Below, piece after piece: positions 12,052-45,280 of a stretch of DNA of 64,000 bases (its first letter is position 1; each line of letters opens with the position of its first letter). Both the position numbers and the translations under genes were made by a program. The notes under the pieces are model-generated. The model did no database searches. It saw only the letters and a list, made by a program, of their open reading frames with translations, and was not told the origin of the DNA. This DNA comes from Naegleria gruberi. Taxonomy: Eukaryota. The stretch lies in assembly GCA_000004985.1 (NCBI GenBank), contig GG738849.1; one strand, 5' to 3'.

Positions 12052-14082
12052 TTATTGCTTTTGTTGAGAAACTTCCCTGAATAATTTGAAAATATCACCA
12101 TTAATATAGTCGTTATCAACAACATTGATCAAGTACCATTCGTCAGAAATTGTCTTTAAGAGAGTATGAGCTTGAGATCCTTCTTCATATAAAGACAACC
12201 AGTGAGTATCCAAAATTTGGAAAGCTTCATCCTTCCAAACTAAGAAAGCATTACTATCAACAACAGTTGGTTGAAGAATTTGTTGAGCTGGGAAAACACC
12301 CCAAGTGACAGCATTCACATAATTATCACCTTGAATATTGGTCTTGACTCTTCCATCCTTTGTGAGAGCTTGATAAGTAACCATTGGATACTTTTCCTTG
12401 ATAATATTTTCAAGAGTTTCAAGATGTTGTGGTGAAATGAAACATTCAACGTAGGCCTTTTGATAGATAAATCCATTCAATGGTCCCCAACCAACAGAAT
12501 CATCAGATGATGAAACACCATTAACCTTTGGTTGAGAATTGGTAGTCAAGAAACCATTCTTATTGAGTTCAATCAATTCATTCTTAATAATATTGGTTTC
12601 TGGAGAGGTAGATTGTTCATTCCATGGAAGGAATGGAATCTTTCCTTCAATAAAGTTAACAAAAACTTGTGAAATTGATTCCAAATTAGCATGTTCAGCA
12701 CCCCAAGCAGCAACAATATTTTCCTTTTCACCAAACTTTCTTCTATAGAAATAGGCAATTTCTTCACCCAATTCACCAAATGCAGGTGATCTAGAATCAC
12801 TCCAACGTCCATTAGGGAATTCATCCCAATGTTGAGTACGATCAATGTATGATTTAACACGATTAGACCAAAAGATTGGACGAACTTCTTCAGCCAAACG
12901 TTTAGCATTAGCAGGTTTAACCCAAGGTAATGATCTTGGAATACTTTCCTTTGGTGAGAGTTCCAATCCTTCAAGAATAGCTTCAGTACTCTTTTCCAAA
13001 TTGAGAGTATAGAAATGGAGTCCACGAATACCATTATCCATCAATGCTCTACAAATAGTGATACATAATTTGATACCATAGGCCTTAACTTCATTATCAT
13101 CTTCCAAATTAAGTTTAGCCATTTCATCATGAACATTTTGTGGAATACTTGTTTTACAGAAAGTGGTCATTCTTTGCCAAGATGCATGATTGTTAATTGG
13201 CATAATACCTGGAATAATTGGACATTTAATTCCGATTTCTCTAGCTTCCTTAACAAACTTTAAGAATTGTTGCCAATCGTAGAACAATTGAGTAACAACA
13301 AAATCTGCTCCAGCATCATACTTTTCCTTCAAGTACATTAAATCCTTTTGATAATCTCCCTCTGGGTGACCTTCACTGTATCCAGCACAAGAAATACCAA
13401 AGTAATCACCATGAGTCTTTCTAATGTGTGAAATTAAATCTCTAGCATACTTGAAACCACCATCAGTTTGTTCCCAATCTTCACTTCCAAGAGGTGGATC
13501 TATATTGTTATATAATAATATATATCATGGTATTGTTAATATTGTTATTATTAAATTAGTGTGTTATTAAATTATTAAAAAAGATCATCATAGTATTATT
13601 ATTATTATTAGTGTAGCATTGGTTTGTAATGATAACAATGATGACAATGATGATGAAGAATGGAATTGGTGACACACATTTAGTTATTAACAAGCAACAA
13701 TAATAAATTATCATTAACACACATATAAATAATAATAAAACAAACCTCCTCTCAAAGCCAAAATATTAGAAATACCCATATCCTTTGCAGTTTGAATAGC
13801 CTTGTCCAATTCTTCAACCTTCATATTAGTACAAGTCATGTGAATTTGAGTTTCAACACCAATCATATTTTGAGCAGTTGCTCCGATTTCAATTGTTTTA
13901 CCAGCAGTACTACCACCAGCTCCCCAAGTAATATCAATAAACATTGGAGCAAGTTTGGCCATACGTTGCAAACGTTGATATAAATTTTCAACGCCTGCAT
14001 CAGTTTTAGGTGGGAAATATTCGAATGAATAAAAGGTCTTGTTTTCTTCAATGCACTGATTGATCTTGTCAATAATCTTCAT
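12052..14082 (-). CDS. MTHFR: Methylenetetrahydrofolate reductase, eukaryotic type with C-terminal regulatory domain. Two exons: 14082..13746, 13499..12052.
   Basis: First in-frame ATG at 14082..14080 (the ORF-track start at 14121 is TTG). FSFEYFPPKT…IDITWGAGGS…HMTCTNM…ALRG|DPP joined across a 246-nt AT-rich intron (GTTTGT…ATAG, 13745..13500). The long second exon carries the rest of the catalytic domain and the eukaryote-specific C-terminal domain. Confidence 0.85.
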
Positions 14083-22308: not shown

Positions 22309-24216
22309 ATGGATGAAATTAACCTTGATGATTTTGCAATAAAAAATGACTCAAGCCCGTCCGATATTGTAGATAGATTGGAAATTCCTCTTCACACCAA
22401 AAATCACCATCAACAGAATAGTTATAGTGAGGAAAATTTATTAAATAATTTAAAGCTGGCCTATGAATTTTCCAAACGATTAATCCGAACTTCACTTGGA
22501 CCATTCAGTAAAGATAAACTAATTGTCAAGGGTGATTTACAAAAAAGCATCCTTGTTACGAATGATGGACGAACGTTAATGGAGGAAATGTTCAAATTGA
22601 GATCTCTCAATGAGAATAGAGAACAACATCCAATTCATACACTACTCTATCAATTATCAAAAAATCAAGACAATACAGTAGGTGATGGAACAACTAGTGT
22701 TGTCGTCTTGTGTGGAGAAATGTGTAAATTATCTGTGGAATTGATTGAAAAATGGAATTTGAGTGTAGATAAGATTATGAAAGGTTTTCAAAAAACTTTG
22801 GATTATATTTTAAGAGAATGGTTATCTGTTTTTACGAAACCATTGAGAGAGGTTGACCCAACAGAGAGCTCTTTAAAAGCTAGTAGATTTTTAAACCTTT
22901 CAAAAATCAAAGATTTAACACAGAGTGATATTGAAAAAATTGCAGCTAAATCATGCCTCCTTTCCAAACAAGTGAAAAATATTTGTGAGGAACTCAGTTC
23001 AATAGCAGTGGAAGCCATTCACGCTACAGCAGGCAAGCTTCATTTCATCAATGTGGACACTCTGATTATTGATAATCAAAATTTAATGAATCAACAACAT
23101 ATTGACAGTAGTACTAATGTAATTCTAATTGAATCTGGAATATGTTTGGTTGGTAAAAATTTGGCATCCAATTTGAATATGAAATTTTCAATGAGAGATT
23201 GCAGAATTGCTCTATTTTCATGTCCCATAGAAACACCTCGACTCAAGACACGACACCACATTAATATTACCAATTCAAAACAATATCAAGAATTGGAAGC
23301 TGTTGAAAATTCCTACCTTGAAGAAGTTATTTCAATTCTGAAGAATTGTAATGTAAATATAATAGTCTCACAATGGGGATTCGATAATAGATTTCATGAT
23401 TACCTAGTTGAGAACAACCTTATTGGTATAAGGTGGGTTGGTGCCGATGAATTGGATAGAATTGCTCTCGCTACAGGTGCCTCAATTTGCCCACAAGTGG
23501 CTCACTTTACTGAAAATATGCTTGGTTATGCTGGAAAATTTGAATATCAGGAGGGTGACAAGTTAATGACCTTTACTGAGTGCATAGAACCAAAAGTTTG
23601 CTCAATCCTAATACGATCCTCAAATGAGTTTCTTGCCCAAGAAACAGCTCGTTCCATGAATGATGCGCTAATGAGTGTTCGATCCGTATATTCTCACCTC
23701 TCCAACAAACACAATGTGTTAGAAAAGAACTCTGAAGACAATTTGGAAACTCTCTCCCTTATTCCTCCATTAAGCTATGGAGGTGGATGTTTTGAAATGC
23801 AAATTTATTCTCTCGTAATGGAAAATTTGGAAAAGATTGAACCAAATGATTTTCTCACTCAAACCATTGCCAAGCATTGGGCAAAAAGCCTTCTGGTTGT
23901 TCCATCTACATTTGCTGAAAATTCAGGACTCTCTGTAATTGAAACAATTCAAACTCTGATTGACAAGCATCAATTAGGAGAATATTATTGTGGACTATTT
24001 GCCAACTCATTCACCCAAGATGATCTATTGAGAGATGAGAAACTGATTGAGGAATATTCCAAACCTTGTTCAAATACTTGCAATTTTCTAATGCAAATTA
24101 AGAATATGAGCGAGACACAAGTTATGGAAAATATTCTTGTCAAGATGAATGTTCTCATTTTAGCAACTGAAATGGTTAATATGATTTTAAAAATTGATGA
24201 GAATATCATGTATTGA
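22309..24216 (+). CDS. Divergent group-II chaperonin (TCP-1/CCT-like) paralogue, 635 aa, single exon. Not one of the canonical CCT subunits. Candidate BBS-type chaperonin-like protein.
   Basis: LGPFSKDKLIV…ILVTNDGRTLMEEM (cf. CCT LGPxGxDKMLV…ITNDGATIL), the invariant ATP-site [10 protein letters not shown] motif, and C-terminal …SYGGGCFEMQ (cf. CCT VPGGGAxE). The rest is highly diverged. A canonical CCT-alpha is separately present at 41734..43552. Confidence 0.65.
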   Translation: MDEINLDDFAIKNDSSPSDIVDRLEIPLHTKNHHQQNSYSEENLLNNLKLAYEFSKRLIRTSLGPFSKDKLIVKGDLQKSILVTNDGRTLMEEMFKLRSLNENREQHPIHTLLYQLSKNQDNTVGDGTTSVVVLCGEMCKLSVELIEKWNLSVDKIMKGFQKTLDYILREWLSVFTKPLREVDPTESSLKASRFLNLSKIKDLTQSDIEKIAAKSCLLSKQVKNICEELSSIAVEAIHATAGKLHFINVDTLIIDNQNLMNQQHIDSSTNVILIESGICLVGKNLASNLNMKFSMRDCRIALFSCPIETPRLKTRHHINITNSKQYQELEAVENSYLEEVISILKNCNVNIIVSQWGFDNRFHDYLVENNLIGIRWVGADELDRIALATGASICPQVAHFTENMLGYAGKFEYQEGDKLMTFTECIEPKVCSILIRSSNEFLAQETARSMNDALMSVRSVYSHLSNKHNVLEKNSEDNLETLSLIPPLSYGGGCFEMQIYSLVMENLEKIEPNDFLTQTIAKHWAKSLLVVPSTFAENSGLSVIETIQTLIDKHQLGEYYCGLFANSFTQDDLLRDEKLIEEYSKPCSNTCNFLMQIKNMSETQVMENILVKMNVLILATEMVNMILKIDENIMY

Positions 24217-25908: not shown

Positions 25909-28900
25909 ATGATTGATCCATCTCAAAATTCAGAGTTAGAAACCTCTTTTAATTTACTTGATCAAGAAGAAAAGGAATTAATTGAACCTCATTATCACTT
26001 TATCCAAAGATCATCAGATTGGATTGAATTAATTCATAACAAAAAACCTCTCAACAATATGCCTCATCGGAACATGTATAATGACACTCCAAGTGATACC
26101 AGCTCAAATAATATAACTCCAAGTAATGCCAATAATGATGATTCACCAGACGTTACACCACTTCATATTTATCTAACCACCCACAAACATGGTCACCACA
26201 TGATTCATGCAAAGAAGGATCAACCATTTGCTCCATCCTTTTTAAATGATGCTGGCTATGAGAGTGGCAGTTCCTCAAATGACGATGATACTGCTCCATC
26301 GAGTGCCTGCGATGAAGTCACTCCAGCCATAACTACTCCTGTTCACTTTCTAACAGAACAACATCATCCCTATTCACCTACCACAATTAACAAATCTTCC
26401 TCAACTAAAGAGTTTCCAACAAGTCACAATCCAGATAATGTACAAAAGTAAGTTTTCCCTTTTTGTTCAATGGAACTAAATTTTCTTGTGATTTGATCAT
26501 TATTTGAAATTTAGAAAAAGGTCTCGAGTTGCTTCTTTACCAGTTACAAATCAACAAGAGAAACTTGTCACAAATAATAATAGCAAAGCAAATCATCCTA
26601 CTATTACTACCAACGATAATAATACTCCTTCTACCACCTCTACCACTTCTCAAACACCTCCAACAAATATTAATAATCCAACTGCTGGTATTCATCATAT
26701 TCAAAGCCAGCCAAACATGCTTTCCAATCAACCAATATCTCTTCTTTCTCAATCATTATTAAAACAAAGTGATGAACATGACTTTTATATGGTCAACGAG
26801 GAAGAAGTTACAAGTGCTTCTGCACTTATTGGAAAACAAAAATATTATAGCGAGGTTAATTTACCAAGTATGGACGTTTCTCCTCTCAAATCGAATGGTC
26901 AATCAATGAAAAAACCAATCATCAAACATAATATTGGAAAACATCACCCAGAAGGAACAGAATCTTGGCTTTTACCAGGGGAATGTGTTCTTAATCATAT
27001 TAAAAAGGTTGGAGTCGTTAAAAATCTCCCAATTACATACTTTCCTCCAACTCATTCCAACCCACAAGCAATTTCATCTCAAGGACCTTTTATTGAGCAA
27101 CCAAAACAAGCTTCTGGAGAATTTTTAACAACAGCAGAGGAATTATTGAATGATTTTAATGTTTATGACTTATTGAATACAGTAGGCGGATCTAGCTCAA
27201 ATTATGGAAGTGCTGGAAGTACTATTAGCACTAATGGTAATGCTACTTCCACTAATGTTGGTGATCAATCTGATACTGAGCCTACTCTTGTTATTGGCGA
27301 GTTATATATTACAAATTATCAAATTAGATTCCAAGTAAGTTTCTCAATTTTTTTTAGTTATTTTAACAATTAAATAGTGCGTTGCTAAACCATCTCTAGT
27401 TCTATCAACTCCAACATCTTGTATTCTTAGAATGGCTCCAAAATATCCACAATCAGAGACAAATACCTACAGCAACTATTACAGTCAATATATTTCATCA
27501 AATGCAAATAATGGACCTACCACTGATAACAAGTTTAATAGTCTTGGATATATTAGTATTAAGAGCAAAGATTTGCAGGTTTTGAAATTTTTATTCTTTA
27601 GAGATTCTTCCTATACAATTGACAAAGTTATGGAGGCCCTTAAAGCTGCTACCTCAAAGAGAGTGTTTGCATTTGCATTCCGTAAACATATTTCCTCCTA
27701 TCCAATTCAAATATATTCTCAGGAGGATATTGAAAAGGGATGGAAGGTTTACAAGATGAAAAGAGAATTTAAAAGACAAGGCCTTTTCACAAGACACCAA
27801 AATAATCCAGCTTTTTCTTGGCGTATTAGTTCTATTAACTCAAAATTCAAAGTTTGTGACACTTATCCAGAACATTTTATTGTTCCTAAAGATGTTTCAG
27901 ATGAAATGCTTGCAGCTTCAGCAGCTTTTAGAAGTAAAGGAAGAATTCCAGTTCTTTCCTGGATTCATCCTCATAAGAATATTTGCATTGTAAGATCGAG
28001 TCAACCTATGGTAGGTATCACAAGAGCAAGATGTAAAGAAGATGAAGAGTTAGTTGATGCCATCAGAAGAGCATCTGGATCAGAGAGACTTCAGATTATT
28101 GACTGTAGACCAAAGGCAAACGCTTGGGCCAATACAGTTATGGGAAAGGGTTATGAAAATATTGCATACTATACTAACTGTTCAATAGAGTTCATGAATA
28201 TTGAAAATATTCATGCCATGACTAACAGTCTTAATTTGCTAAAGAAATTAATTCAAAATAAGCAAAATAACGATCAATATTGGCTATCTTCTTTTGAGGC
28301 AACAGGATGGTTAAAACATACCAAGTTAATCATGCAAGCAGCTTCAAAGGTTGTAACTTATATTGAAAGATTTGATACATCAGTACTTGTTCACTGTAGT
28401 GATGGATGGGATCGTACCGCACAAATCTGCGCACTTGCAGAGCTTTTATTAGACCCTTATTACAGAACTATTAAGGGATTTGAAATTCTAATTGAGAGAG
28501 AGTGGGTTTCTTTTGGTCACAAGTTTCTAGATCGTGTAGGACATGGATGTGTTGGAAAAACTAATTCAGCCTCTGATGAAATTTCTCCTGTTTTTTTACA
28601 ATTTATTGATTGTGTTTGGCAAATTTGGCAACAATATCCTTCACATTTCGAGTTTAATGAGGCGTTCCTCTTCTTAATATTGGACAGTTTATATTCTTGT
28701 CGTTTTGGAAACTTTTTATTGAATTGTGCTAAACAACAGCTCGATGAAAATATTACAAAGGATACTATTTCGGTTTGGACAGAAGTAATGACAAACCCTT
28801 CTCTGTATTATAACGATGTTTATAACCCAAAGAATAGCGAATATTCAACATTAATTGTAAATACCGACATTGACACACTCTCCACACACTTTTGGATAAG

Positions 28901-31895: not shown

Positions 31896-33578
31896 TTAGT
31901 CACGTTTTACTCTCTTACTGTCTTGTGAGGAAGGTGTTGGGTGCTCTGTTCTTCTACCAGTACTTGTATTGGTTAAAAGTTGACTAGTTGTTAAGGATGG
32001 TTGAGTTCTGAGGAGAAGACTTGGAGATACAAATGTTTGAGATGAATTTACAGTGGTGGAGGATTGAGAAGTGCCAGAATTTTCATTTTGTCTTCTCATT
32101 CTAGAAATTTTGATATTTTCCTTATAAATTTCTTCCTTAGATATTACACTTTCGAGGGCATCTTTTCTAGAGCTTTGCAAGTTACAATAGAGACCTTCAA
32201 TTGCACGTTGCATAGAGTTTAAAACTTGAATTGGATCAGAAGCTACTTCCTTCATCCATCCATCTCTCATTACTTCTGTGGCATTTACATCACTGGAGAC
32301 CTTTTCAAACTTTTTCAAAGTGTCAAAAATCTCACACTCTGGGAAAATGCCAATCCACTCACTAAATCTTACAACATTGGAATTAACGAGATTGGTTGTG
32401 CTTTGGGAGCTGGCTCCACCAGGTATCGCTGTATTTAGTTGAGTAGGAAGAGAGGTGTGATGATCTAGCACAGAGCCACTAATATTTGATTCCCAAGAAG
32501 ATTTCCACTTGTTGGAAATTGTTGTCTTGAGCTTGAGTATTACTTCAGAATCATCTGTTGAAAATTTATCTGTATTGGCTTGATAAATATCAATAATATC
32601 CTCAATGCAGTCAAAATCATCTTGAAGTCTCTTTAAAATTGTTTCCAATATTGTAGGTGTAATAACATAACGAGTAGCCTTATTCGCAATTATCAATCTC
32701 TTTACACAAGCAATTGATTGATTCTTCTTCAAAGTAAAGTATTGATCCAACACATTCTCTCCATCATCCAATTTAACATAATCCGAGTCCCAAATACCTG
32801 GTTCAACTTCTTTAGCTGCATCAAGAACAGAATTAAAGTTAAGCATAATTAGGGTATCAACAATGGCCATTAAAATATCTCTGAAATTTGGATCCATACA
32901 CAAGGAACTATTTCTAAAATACCATATTGTATAGTCAAATGCTTTCTTTAAGTTTTTCAATTCAGAGACGTAATAAAATAATGTCCCATATTCAAATACT
33001 CTGAATCCATGAACAATTTCAGATCTGAGCTTCAAAAATCTGTTTGCTGAATTACTATCTTCCATTCTTAATTCGTTTAATTTTTGATTCTGGAGATAGA
33101 TCAAGAGCTTTTTTGATTTTTCGCTATTGTAATCTCTTAAATTTTCAATAAAGGCAAAAACATCCCCCTCACAAAATTTGGCAATAAATTCATCCTCATC
33201 ATATGGCCTCTGTTGACAATTACTTTCATTTGCACTCTCCACGGAATATAAAAATTCAAAAAAGCCTATGCAAAGTACTTTCATCAGTGATGTTGTTAAA
33301 TCATTCAACTCTATCGGATCACTTGGATTAATGTCCGTTTTCATCCACATTAATAATAATTGTACTAGTGATTGAATATATTGTTTTGGGTTTTGACTAT
33401 CACTCAAGAGCATATAGAGTGAGTGATCACATTTGCCATCTGTACTTCTACTAAATAATCCCTTCTCTCTGTTTTTAAATTGGCTATTGTCACCAGATCC
33501 ACCCAAGTGGTCCAAAGTATTATTATTTGTTTCGCCATCGTCTGTTTTTTCAGAGGCACCACCAGGTGATGATGGCAT
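31896..33578 (-). CDS. Hypothetical protein, 560 aa, single exon. No recognised domain.
   Basis: ATG at 33578..33576. Continuous ORF. Gly/Ser-rich N-terminus and a Ser/Thr-rich basic C-terminus ending …KRVKRD (NLS-like). Confidence 0.5.
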   Translation of the reverse strand: MPSSPGGASEKTDDGETNNNTLDHLGGSGDNSQFKNREKGLFSRSTDGKCDHSLYMLLSDSQNPKQYIQSLVQLLLMWMKTDINPSDPIELNDLTTSLMKVLCIGFFEFLYSVESANESNCQQRPYDEDEFIAKFCEGDVFAFIENLRDYNSEKSKKLLIYLQNQKLNELRMEDSNSANRFLKLRSEIVHGFRVFEYGTLFYYVSELKNLKKAFDYTIWYFRNSSLCMDPNFRDILMAIVDTLIMLNFNSVLDAAKEVEPGIWDSDYVKLDDGENVLDQYFTLKKNQSIACVKRLIIANKATRYVITPTILETILKRLQDDFDCIEDIIDIYQANTDKFSTDDSEVILKLKTTISNKWKSSWESNISGSVLDHHTSLPTQLNTAIPGGASSQSTTNLVNSNVVRFSEWIGIFPECEIFDTLKKFEKVSSDVNATEVMRDGWMKEVASDPIQVLNSMQRAIEGLYCNLQSSRKDALESVISKEEIYKENIKISRMRRQNENSGTSQSSTTVNSSQTFVSPSLLLRTQPSLTTSQLLTNTSTGRRTEHPTPSSQDSKRVKRD

Positions 33579-41733: not shown

Positions 41734-43552
41734 ATGATGGCTCCAAGTATAAATCCTCTCTACATTGATGGAGAGAGAACCACTGGTAATGAAGTTAGAC
41801 TTGAAAATGGTATGTGTTTAGAAATTCGGATGTAAATTTATAATAGTAACATTTTGGAATACATCAACTTGTATTGTACATTTGATATCTTCTTGGGACC
41901 CTTTGAAATCTTTTTGGAATATACAACTTGTCTTTAATACAACAACAACAATATTGTGGATTTGTATTTTAACAACAATAGTTCAAGCTTGTCAAACAGT
42001 GCAAAACATTATGAAGACTTCATTCGGTCCACAAGGTCTTGACAAGATGCTTGTCGATGAAGTTGGTGATGTTACCGTAACTAACGATGGTGCTACCATT
42101 CTTAACCTCATTGAAGTCAATCATCCAGCCGCTAAGACTCTTGTAGATCTTGCTCGTACACAAGATGAAGCTGTTGGTGATGGTACAACATCTGTTGTTT
42201 TGTTGGCTGCCGAATTATTAAAACAAGGACAAGAATTAATCACAGAAAAGATTCACCCAACTAATATCATTTCCGGATATAAATTGGCTGCAAAGAAGGC
42301 CACTGAATTTATTAAGAATGAATTGCAAATCTCCACACATACTCTTGATAATGCTGCATTAATTAACGTTGCCAAGACTTCAATGGCTTCAAAGGTTTTA
42401 GGACCAGAATCAGATTTATTTGCCAAATTGTGTGTTGATGCTTTGTTGGCTGTTAAAGTTGTTACTGGATCTGGTAAGGAAAGATATCCAATCAAGGCTA
42501 TCAATATTTTGAAACAACACGGAAAATCAATGAAGGAAAGTACATTAGTTAATGGATTTGCTTTGAACAATACTCGTTCATCCCAACAAATGCCAAAGAT
42601 TATCAAGGGTGCCAAGATTGCTCTCCTCGATATTGCTTTGAATAGACAAAGAATGAAGTTGGGTATTAAATTCCAAATTACTGATCCAAAGGAATTGGAA
42701 GGAGTTCAAGAACGTGAACAAACTTTGATTCGTGACCGTATCCAAATGTTGTTAAATGCTGGTGCTAACGTTATTTTGACAACAAAGGGTATTGATGATA
42801 TGTGTTTGAAATACTTTGTTGAAGCTAATGCTATTGCTGTCAGAAGATGTGATAAGGAAGATTTGAAGCGTATTGCTAAATTGACTGGTGGTTCTTTGGT
42901 TACATCATTCGCTGATTTGGATGGTGAAGAGTCATTCTCTGCTGAATCTTTGGGTACTGCTGAAGAAGTTGTTGAAGAAGAACTTGCTGGTGATTCATTG
43001 ATTTATATTCGTGGTACTAAGCTCACCACTTCACAATCAATTGTTTTGCGTGGTGCTAACAGTTTCTTGTTGGATGAAATGAGTCGTACTATTCACGATG
43101 CTATGTGTGCTTTGAAACGAGTTTTGGAATCAAAGAATGTTGTTCCTGGTGGTGGTAGTGTTGAAACTGCTCTCTCTGTCTATTTGGATCGTTTTGCTAT
43201 GACTATTGAAACACGAGAACAATTAGCTATTGCTGCTTTTGCTAATGCTCTCTTGGTTATTCCAAAGACTTTATCTGTCAATGCTGCTTTGGATGCTACT
43301 GAATTGGTTGCCAAATTGCGAGCATACCACAATGATGTTCATGAATTGAACAAGAAGGAATATTTGAGATATGGTTTGGACCTTATGGCTGATGATGTTA
43401 GAGATAACGTTGAAGCTGGTGTTTTGGAGCCTGCCATGTTGAAGATTAAGTATATCCAATTTGCTACTGAAGCTGCTGTTACTATCCTCCGTATTGATGA
43501 CATGATCCGAATTAATGATAATGAAAAGGAAGATCCAAGAAGAAGAAGGTAA
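41734..43552 (+). CDS. T-complex protein 1 subunit alpha (CCT-alpha). Two exons: 41734..41809, 41982..43552.
   Basis: [26 protein letters not shown]|[40 protein letters not shown]…GDGTTSVV…PGGGSVE…, collinear with CCT1. 172-nt GTATGT…ATAG intron after codon 25. Confidence 0.9.
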
Positions 43553-43651: not shown

Positions 43652-45280
43652 ATGATACCCAACATTAATCATCATCAGCAGCAACACCAATTTAACAATA
43701 TCAAACAAAACATTTTAAAATGGGTAAATATAATGAAACCCTATATTATCAAATTTTGCGCGGCCATTGTAGTATTATTCTTTCTTTTAAAAGAATACTT
43801 TTTCAAACTCTTGTCAACATTTAACAAATCCAAATCATTGATATTTCTTCTCCTTTCACAAATTTTATTCTTACTATCATTTGTAATAATATTGAAAATA
43901 TTTCTATTTAAACCTCAATTTTCACCAATAACACACATTCCAACAGATGAATATTTTATTCATTTACGTAATGTTCCGATAGAAAAATGTCATGTGACAT
44001 TTCTATTGAGTGCAAAACCAAGATTAGGATTAATTGGAACTGAATTTGTTCATTTAGATTTTCTAATTGAAAATATTATGAAATTTAAACAACAAGTATT
44101 TAATCCTTGTATTCTAATTTATAATTCTAAAGGTAAAATTTATAAGGATCAAATTGAAAAGATTGTAAACAGATATCCAAGGCAATACATTTCAATAATT
44201 CATAATTCTTATAGTTTTAACATGTTTATGAATGCTAAAATTACACCAAAACAAAAATCTCAATCCAACTCTTTCTATGACATGGTTAAGAATGTGAATA
44301 ATCAAATATCTCTCATTTCTAAGGGTGGTAGCAGTAGCAGTGGTAGTGTTGGTTTGAATAGTGGTATTAATACAAAGAGTGGTATTCTAGATGCTAACAT
44401 ACCTGTAGTTCTCATGCAGGATGATTATGTTTTATGTGATTCATCCATTTCACATTTATCCTTGATATTTGAGAAGGCAACTCATTTGGAAGAACAGGGA
44501 AAGGATTGGGCTGGTTTTCGTTTTTCTTATGGAATGAGTGGAATAATGATGCAACAGAAGGATTTACCAAATTTAATTGAATATTTGGGAAGGAGAAGTG
44601 ATACCCGACATACCATTCAACACTTGTTGGATAATTTCTTTGATAATACTAAAAAGGCACACCAAGACTATTTCAAAGGACGTTATTTTTACACATACAG
44701 ATTCCAATTATTGAGACCAAATTATCATTTCAACTTGGAAAAGTCTCACTTCCCTCAATGTTTTGAACCTCAAACTCATTTGGTAATTGAATCATGTTCA
44801 CATTCTCTGTTTTTTCCTTGTGAGGGAAAGGAACAGCAAGCTATTGATTATTCAGCATCAACTTTATCTGGTAATTCCAATAGTGGTGGTTCAAGTGGTG
44901 GCAATTCATTCTCTCATGATGTTTTGCAATTGGCGGCATTTCCAGCTTCACATAAGCATTCTATTAGTGATTTTAAAAATGTTGAGAGTATTCCATGCGA
45001 AAAGGGAGAAAGTTGTAATGCATGCTGTAGAAAAGTGAATGCATTGTGTGATGCCAACTTTTTCAGTTATATCAATAGATGTGATGAAATGCAAAGATTT
45101 GCACCTAAATGTAATTGCAAATATCAGAGAGGATTAATTGTGGAAAGTGTAGCTCCATATTTTAATGACAATACCTGTGTATTAGGTTCAAGAGTTTCCA
45201 AATTTAATTGTCATAATTCTGATTCTACTGTAAAACGTTTATGCCCATGTACTGAGAAAATTATTGATAGAACTGATTAA
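43652..45280 (+). CDS. Type-II membrane protein with a Cys-rich C-terminus. Possibly a GT54 (MGAT4-like) glycosyltransferase. 542 aa, single exon.
   Basis: N-terminal signal-anchor (IIKFCAAIVVLFFLL…). Block …VVLMQDDYVLCDSS…GKDWAGFRFSYGMSGIMMQ resembles the DDD…W..L.FS.LGFIGK core of GnT-IV family enzymes. Assignment tentative. Confidence 0.45.
   Translation: MIPNINHHQQQHQFNNIKQNILKWVNIMKPYIIKFCAAIVVLFFLLKEYFFKLLSTFNKSKSLIFLLLSQILFLLSFVIILKIFLFKPQFSPITHIPTDEYFIHLRNVPIEKCHVTFLLSAKPRLGLIGTEFVHLDFLIENIMKFKQQVFNPCILIYNSKGKIYKDQIEKIVNRYPRQYISIIHNSYSFNMFMNAKITPKQKSQSNSFYDMVKNVNNQISLISKGGSSSSGSVGLNSGINTKSGILDANIPVVLMQDDYVLCDSSISHLSLIFEKATHLEEQGKDWAGFRFSYGMSGIMMQQKDLPNLIEYLGRRSDTRHTIQHLLDNFFDNTKKAHQDYFKGRYFYTYRFQLLRPNYHFNLEKSHFPQCFEPQTHLVIESCSHSLFFPCEGKEQQAIDYSASTLSGNSNSGGSSGGNSFSHDVLQLAAFPASHKHSISDFKNVESIPCEKGESCNACCRKVNALCDANFFSYINRCDEMQRFAPKCNCKYQRGLIVESVAPYFNDNTCVLGSRVSKFNCHNSDSTVKRLCPCTEKIIDRTD

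Follow-up and report, generated by a model that had tools for sequence, protein, structure and literature searches.

A highly diverged CCT-epsilon-like group II chaperonin gene in Naegleria gruberi

The chaperonin TRiC/CCT is usually described as a set of eight fixed, slowly evolving subunits found in all eukaryotes. A locus of Naegleria gruberi raises the question of how a chaperonin gene that departs strongly from this description is related to the eight families, and whether its product is one of the eight in altered form or an addition to them. The locus lies in a stretch of 64,000 nucleotides of contig GG738849.1 (assembly GCA_000004985.1), hereafter the window, in which an open reading frame (ORF) at positions 22309-24216 on the plus strand runs uninterrupted, without an internal stop, for 635 amino acids in one exon, as a sequence-only reading of the window had reported. 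By database identity the gene is NAEGRDRAFT_30508 (XP_002681686.1, D2V2R6), annotated as "predicted protein". The sequence-only reading took its product for an orphan-like chaperonin of the BBS10/BBS12 kind. The analysis described here identifies the gene as a real, unusual chaperonin variant that descends from CCT5 (CCT-epsilon).

Membership of the group II chaperonins was assessed with a hidden Markov model (HMM) search and with a comparison of a predicted structure with the CCT fold, two checks that the sequence-only reading had proposed. The product matches PF00118 (Cpn60_TCP1) at 293.3 bits (E=4.2e-87), above the gathering cut-off of 34.3, and belongs to the group II chaperonins. An AlphaFold2 model built from 50 homologues (predicted local distance difference test score (pLDDT) 81.4, predicted template modelling score 0.79) has equatorial, intermediate and apical domains and a built-in lid helix, that is, the whole three-domain fold, and it matches CCT chains. 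The top Foldseek matches were human CCT5 chains in closed TRiC (E=4e-32, target template modelling (TM) score 0.75), and target TM scores to CCT and thermosome chains were 0.73-0.87 over about 600 columns, with thermosome matches at 0.77-0.87.

The catalytic residues were read from a 50-sequence alignment of CCT5s and thermosomes that includes the 635-residue ORF. The nucleotide-site columns D86, G125-T129, K220, D452, G491 and G493 are all invariant, which bears out the earlier statement that the ATP site is kept, and the motifs singled out in the sequence-only reading are present at residues 62-87 (SLGPFSKDKLIV...TNDG), 125-133 (GDGTTSVVV) and 490-493 (YGGG). Within TNDG, N85-D86-G87 (22561..22569; plus strand, like all features of the gene below) comprises the invariant D86 and G87 and an N85 conserved in at least 90% of the sequences; Asp86 is the aspartate that group II chaperonins conserve at the nucleotide/Mg site. 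The GDGTT phosphate-binding loop at residues 125-129 (22681..22695) aligns to the P-loop of human CCT5. Lys220, in LLSKQV (22966..22968), presumably corresponds to the nucleotide-sensing-loop lysine K161 of Mm-cpn, and Asp452, in RSMNDAL (23662..23664), is what we take to be the intermediate-domain catalytic aspartate, D386 of Mm-cpn; this motif, in which R448 is invariant as well, aligns to RSLHDAL of human CCT5. GGG at residues 491-493 (23779..23787), in the C-terminal equatorial segment, is the glycine motif that binds nucleotide; its G492, between two invariant glycines, is conserved in at least 90% of the sequences. The apical built-in lid, or helical protrusion, occupies residues 305-346 (23221..23346; CPIETPRLKTRHHINIT...EEVISILK) and aligns to CPFEPPKPKTKHKLDVT... 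of human CCT5; its helix at residues 323-346 has a pLDDT of about 90, and the lid segment CPIETPRLKTRH... is among the best-aligned stretches against human CCT5. The protein is a complete group II chaperonin subunit with three domains, lid and full nucleotide site, and these residues indicate that it probably hydrolyses ATP, in which case ATP would be bound and hydrolysed in the equatorial pocket and the lid would close as in any group II subunit. The picture of a preserved equatorial domain and mostly lost intermediate and apical sequence, drawn in the sequence-only reading, was not recovered: the protein resembles the canonical CCT5 consensus to a similar degree throughout (identity 0.32-0.42 equatorial, 0.24-0.28 intermediate, 0.28-0.38 apical), and the lid is well aligned.

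Family assignment was made with profile and pairwise searches. In a phmmer search against PDB sequences the best matches were all CCT-epsilon chains (193 bits), the match to human CCT5 (E=5e-56) spanning residues 54-548 and 598-631, with thermosomes reaching at most 145 bits, gamma 113 and delta 105. Homology to canonical CCT is thus full-length, at this E value and at E=4e-87 for PF00118, where the sequence-only reading had seen little in common. Among the TIGRFAM equivalog models epsilon (TIGR02343) came top at 251.6 bits, followed by thermosome (225.6), gamma (168), eta (161) and delta (161); every CCT model except epsilon scored at most 168 bits, and theta, at 144.5 bits, was ninth of the eleven models. 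A canonical CCT-alpha gene in the same window (41882-43552, plus strand; 17.7 kb downstream, in agreement with the approximately 18 kb noted earlier) served as an internal yardstick. Against foreign TIGRFAM models this CCT-alpha ranks thermosome first, then eta, then epsilon, so that a raised epsilon score is a specific property of the ORF. The 251.6 bits of the ORF do not reach the curated equivalog cut-off of TIGR02343, which is 710.5; for comparison, CCT-alpha scores 798.5 bits against TIGR02340, whose cut-off is 800.2. At the 74 columns conserved specifically in CCT5 the ORF keeps 27% of the residues, and thermosomes 0-8%. Descent from the CCT-epsilon (CCT5) lineage is thus well supported by sequence comparison. 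The sequence-only reading had named clear orthology to a canonical subunit, such as a fast-evolving CCT6 or CCT8, as evidence that would speak against it; a clear affinity to a canonical subunit was found, and the subunit is epsilon, not zeta or theta.

The gene is not an orphan. Single-exon orthologues were found in N. fowleri (673 amino acids; locus L002, 10001-12022) and N. lovaniensis (670 amino acids; locus L004, 3001-5013), both 57% identical to the N. gruberi protein, and further lineages carry relatives. Gene order at the N. fowleri and N. lovaniensis loci is alike (PSF2, an abhydrolase, an unknown gene of about 310 amino acids, the chaperonin and an NAD-binding dehydrogenase), and the N. 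gruberi window has only the chaperonin gene in common with them. Between N. fowleri and N. lovaniensis the ratio of non-synonymous to synonymous substitution rates (dN/dS) of the chaperonin gene is 0.18, indicating purifying selection, and its dN of 0.124 compares with 0.047-0.048 in two adjacent genes, a difference of about 2.6-fold.

The orthologues also bear on the gene model. The public model XP_002681686.1 has only 580 amino acids, three in-frame GT..AG pieces (22882-22947, 23719-23775 and 23989-24036) having been removed as introns. In N. fowleri and N. lovaniensis, whose genes have a single exon, all three pieces are conserved and coding, and the first can be aligned with a conserved helix in human CCT5. 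The 635-residue reading is therefore preferred, and the public N. gruberi model, with three false introns, is probably wrong. An exact look-up of the 635-residue product returned no record.

An exhaustive HMM search covering 1.84 billion cluster representatives, in which the level of canonical CCT5 is about 448 bits, placed only three clusters above that level as one chaperonin copy: Naegleria, P0005 (which stands for the proteins P0004-P0008) and P0122. One further match exceeds this level, P0234 at 545 bits; it is a Freyarchaeota thermosome with two copies, and its score sums over two stretches. This protein (P0234/P0381, from a metagenome-assembled genome of Candidatus Freyarchaeota) is a 1057-residue "thermosome subunit alpha" with two chaperonin-like stretches, a tandem fusion. 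The sequences P0004-P0008 derive from Logan assemblies, JGI metagenomes and EukProt, and lie on compact, AT-rich contigs (25-32% GC) in the order Vps16 (minus strand), CCT5-like chaperonin, TLC-domain gene (L001, 3594-8314; L006, 597-4200; L007, 78-5300); the P0122 contig has 44% GC. The best named matches of the Vps16 on the P0005 contig were flat at 32-34% identity, in Amoebozoa and early fungi, the matches to Amoebozoa, fungi and stramenopiles as a whole lying at 30-34%, and no Naegleria match appeared in that search.

In neighbour-joining (NJ) trees Naegleria, P0004-P0008 and P0122 group with 100% bootstrap support, a robust clade that adds two or more eukaryote lineages to Naegleria, namely the P0004-P0008 lineage or lineages and P0122. 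At 46 columns that are conserved in canonical CCT5s, both Naegleria and P0004-P0008 carry a derived residue, and in 28 of the 46 it is the same one, including rare changes (V to C, twice; F to W; S to Y; L to R). Fast-evolving control CCT5s share identical derived residues at 12-39%, and the grouping of Naegleria with P0004-P0008 is therefore not just a product of long-branch attraction. Residues exclusive to the clade number 22, of which P0122 has 14. The Naegleria-containing clade is sister to all canonical CCT5s, discoban ones included, with support of 98% for canonical CCT5 monophyly and 97% for CCT5 plus the Naegleria clade, values in which long-branch effects may have a part. A profile of the clade was also searched against proteins, the best 120 matches being listed here as in the other protein searches. 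Beyond the clade, every listed match that is named as a particular subunit is a CCT5, the others being generic Cpn60/TCP-1 or hypothetical proteins and many unnamed ones; the named matches include proteins of fungi, Anaeramoeba and Diplonema, and the CCT5 of the discoban Diplonema ambulator is second among the canonical matches listed.

Despite this kinship the protein has moved far from its relatives, and to this extent the low likeness to canonical CCT remarked on in the sequence-only reading stands. It is 28-29% identical to canonical CCT5s, which are 60-67% identical among themselves (fungi, plants, Anaeramoeba, diplonemids). Canonical CCT5s have 246 columns with at least 95% conservation, the 74 CCT5-specific ones among them; the protein retains the conserved residue at 43% of the 246, and archaeal thermosomes at 55-63%. 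The NJ branch of the protein is about twice as long as that of a microsporidian CCT5, and the rate is high in every lineage of the Naegleria-containing clade. Subunit-specific apical substrate-contact positions of CCTs have been defined as a triad (PMC2846930, Table 6). In canonical CCT5 this reads H-L-x-x-Q (H in 94/106, L in 105/106 and Q in 66/106 sequences); the corresponding apical helix positions 364, 365 and 368 of the ORF (23398..23412) read D-Y-x-x-E, and within the clade the triad varies between DYE, DFQ, QWC and QWD. The predicted CCT5-type apical substrate triad is lost.

Insertions add about 100 amino acids in total, at residues 95-103, 180-202, 262-270, 464-485 and 564-597. The first, FKLRSLNEN (residues 95-103; 22591..22617), lies in the equatorial domain, is absent from at least 90% of canonical CCT5s, and is Naegleria-specific and conserved in the three Naegleria species. 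The first intermediate segment has two (residues 180-194 and 197-202; 22846..22914), which are partly spliced out in the NCBI model. A 22-residue insertion directly before YGGG (residues 464-485; 23698..23763) has low pLDDT at 479-481 and occurs in all three Naegleria species, being absent from P0004-P0008. Those at residues 564-580 and 588-597 (23998..24099) are in the C-terminal equatorial segment, where pLDDT is below 50 at 585-593. Codon usage is likewise unlike that of the yardstick: the effective number of codons is 44.1 for the ORF and 34.2 for CCT-alpha, and an index modelled on the codon adaptation index, indicative only, as its small reference set was drawn from the window, is 0.51 and 0.72, respectively, which puts the ORF 24th of the 27 window genes and CCT-alpha first among the non-reference genes.

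Three further very divergent chaperonins emerged from the exhaustive HMM search: P0275 of Tieghemostelium lacteum (L009, 5001-6794; GCA_001606155.1, LODT01), P0327 (L010, 5001-6575; GCA_000787575.2, which we believe to be the genome of Acytostelium subglobosum) and P0238 of the malawimonad Gefionella okellyi. On the TIGRFAM models they score much like the ORF, epsilon standing at about the thermosome level or above it (262 versus 226 and 249 versus 256 bits in the two dictyostelid proteins). In NJ trees from Kimura distances, gamma distances and the slow half of the sites, the three join the Naegleria clade at 97.5-98.5%, and other long-branch CCT5s stay out of this group. Of the 22 clade-exclusive residues they have 7-8; other divergent sequences have 6-7. 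All canonical CCT families are present in Dictyostelium, and its protein DDB_G0268902, called "BBS12-like" and tentatively put at the base of BBS12, falls in none of them (PMC10074162). P0275 and P0327 are probably orthologues of DDB_G0268902, and the scores given above suggest that they and P0238 are of CCT5-like, not BBS- or CCT8-like, origin. If the Naegleria gene is orthologous to this extra dictyostelid gene, it is by definition a paralogue.

Taking these observations together, we lean slightly towards the view that the Naegleria protein is an extra, ninth, CCT5-derived paralogue rather than the stoichiometric epsilon subunit of Naegleria TRiC. The leaning rests on a divergence beyond that of microsporidian CCT5 in a genome whose CCT-alpha is canonical, on a retention of conserved columns below that of thermosomes, and on the high rate, the lost triad, the low codon bias and the possible dictyostelid link. 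Such a paralogue would have an altered client specificity, and might either stand in for epsilon in some of the rings or form an oligomer of its own; it may be related to the extra CCT-like gene of dictyostelids and the Gefionella protein. Human CCT5 can form homo-oligomeric rings. Several points weigh against this view. The grouping with the dictyostelid and Gefionella proteins falls to 62% under Dayhoff-6 recoding and could reflect long-branch attraction, and in hhalign comparisons the Naegleria profile scored 463-516 against canonical CCT5 and 299-411 against the dictyostelid/Gefionella profile. The codon-bias argument assumes that bias tracks expression in Naegleria, and its reference set is small. 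The intact ATPase and lid would be no less expected of a normal ring subunit, and the automatic UniProt name of the N. fowleri orthologue is "CCT-epsilon". No separate Naegleria CCT5 appears among the best 120 matches, a result that is neutral between the two views, as fungal CCT5s and thermosomes flood these matches; recall was imperfect as well, P0002 and P0003 being missing from the listed matches of the clade-profile query of which they were part.

The alternative that competes most closely, and that we hold to be possible though less probable, is that the gene is the sole Naegleria CCT5 orthologue, encoding a hyper-divergent but functional epsilon subunit that would sit between CCT7 and CCT2 in an otherwise canonical TRiC ring; the acceleration would then have begun in an ancestor common to Naegleria and the organisms carrying P0004-P0008 and P0122. 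Such a subunit would account for the best match being epsilon in every classifier, for the full catalytic set and lid, and for one conserved copy under purifying selection in each Naegleria species. It would also agree with the rank of the diplonemid CCT5 in the clade-profile matches, with the very compact genomes that carry P0005 and P0007, in which additional paralogues are less to be expected, and with the lack of another Naegleria CCT5 in search outputs that could not be expected to list one. Literature searches brought up nothing on CCT in Naegleria; the supplements searched name alpha, beta, gamma, delta and eta subunits for N. gruberi and give nothing on epsilon. Less easily explained by a sole epsilon subunit are a divergence greater than in microsporidian CCT5 in an organism with a canonical CCT-alpha (798 bits), the universal group II positions, of which fewer are kept than in thermosomes, a rate that stays high in every lineage of the clade, and a CCT5 substrate triad that is both lost and variable. 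The codon bias, moreover, is far weaker than that of CCT-alpha, which would be its equimolar partner.

The extra-paralogue view has a wider form, for which the dictyostelid and Gefionella proteins provide the grounds and which we consider rather unlikely: an ancient, sparsely kept ninth CCT family whose separation from CCT5 would date from near the base of the eukaryotes. Were this the case, members would have been retained in Naegleria (Discoba), in dictyostelids (Amoebozoa), in malawimonads (Gefionella) and in a few protists as yet unsampled, organisms without cilia among them. Their products would build a chaperonin that is either an alternative one or homo-oligomeric and that serves clients of its own, and the "BBS12-like" protein of Dictyostelium would belong with these CCT5-like proteins instead of the BBS proteins.

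A relationship to the BBS chaperonins was the proposal of the sequence-only reading. MKKS, BBS10 and BBS12 are reported to be monophyletic and derived from CCT8 (PMC2846930; repeated in PMC10074162), and the BBS and CCT8L proteins are fast-evolving with a three-domain core, BBS10 and BBS12 keeping the ATP motif and the substrate and contact positions being relaxed (PMC2846930). The ORF displays much of this pattern, being aberrant and fast-evolving with an intact ATP site and a substrate triad that is not conserved; kinship with BBS10, BBS12 or MKKS was not borne out, as epsilon gives the best TIGRFAM score and theta (CCT8) ranks near the bottom, and membership of the BBS chaperonins was rejected. 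It is very improbable that the gene encodes a protist member of the MKKS/BBS10/BBS12 group that works outside the TRiC ring and assists BBSome assembly for the flagellum. In its favour, besides the pattern just described, are the flagella that Naegleria builds, the BBSome genes that it presumably has, and the placement at the base of BBS12 of a Dictyostelium gene that is possibly related (PMC10074162). The CCT8 descent reported for BBS proteins does not agree with theta being among the weakest matches here and epsilon the best, and possible relatives occur in dictyostelids, which have neither cilia nor a BBSome. Human MKKS, BBS10 and BBS12 sequences (570, 723 and 710 amino acids), which were unverified and count as a lead only but behave like chaperonin-related proteins, gave near-zero scores or no match (at most 7.5 bits) against the N. 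gruberi ORF, no higher than against canonical CCTs. A role outside the canonical ring is possible. Finally, a decaying or non-functional CCT5 duplicate, a pseudogene in progress, would fit the very high divergence, the several insertions and the weak codon bias, yet was rejected as extremely improbable given intact ORFs of 635-673 codons in three species, invariant catalytic columns, a confidently predicted fold and a dN/dS of 0.18.

The genes around the chaperonin are ordinary housekeeping genes, encoding a PPR protein, a PNP_UDP_1-family phosphorylase (MTAP-like), a myotubularin-like phosphatase and MTHFR. The MTHFR ORF (12052-13338, minus strand) matches the whole regulatory domain and, of the catalytic-domain profile, positions 163-286 only, and the N-terminal part of MTHFR probably sits in an upstream exon. 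Two long ORFs, at 31896-33578 (minus strand, 560 amino acids) and 26504-27373 (plus strand, 289 amino acids), have no Pfam match, and the ORF that adjoins CCT-alpha (43652-45280, plus strand, 542 amino acids) has no NCBIfam match. One supplement lists "chaperonin subunit alpha, partial" among N. gruberi product names, and the CCT-alpha model may be incomplete in the public annotation too.

To our knowledge, the extra CCT-like genes described so far (BBS6/10/12 and CCT8L) come from CCT8 and are found mostly in animals. In free-living protists, a lineage that derives from CCT5 and has kept its ATPase intact would represent a second, independent route to a specialised chaperonin, and this would hold for a ninth gene and for a drastically remodelled epsilon subunit alike. 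A tie to unusual Naegleria clients, such as separate mitotic and flagellar tubulins, is conceivable as speculation, and the reading of the Dictyostelium "BBS12-like" sequence would change. In practical terms, the public N. gruberi entry combines a probably wrong gene model with a description that says nothing of chaperonins.

Compared with known systems, the protein is closest to CCT5 (TIGR02343), which is its best family in both sequence and structure and has the same nucleotide site and lid, but it differs in lying outside the canonical CCT5 clade in NJ trees, in its replaced apical triad and in its approximately 100 inserted amino acids. With archaeal thermosomes, its second-best sequence match, it shares the fold; unlike them it has CCT5-specific residues, and it is a eukaryotic protein encoded on a Naegleria nuclear scaffold. 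The BBS6/10/12 and CCT8L proteins are likewise fast-evolving and CCT-derived, paralogues in which the same kind of relaxation is seen, whereas the reported parent of BBS6/10/12 is CCT8 and that of the ORF CCT5, and the ORF, unlike the BBS proteins, fully keeps the lid and the catalytic aspartate. The extra CCT-like gene of dictyostelids resembles it in being very divergent, in its TIGRFAM profile and in grouping with the Naegleria clade by NJ, but that grouping drops under recoding and is not favoured by hhalign.

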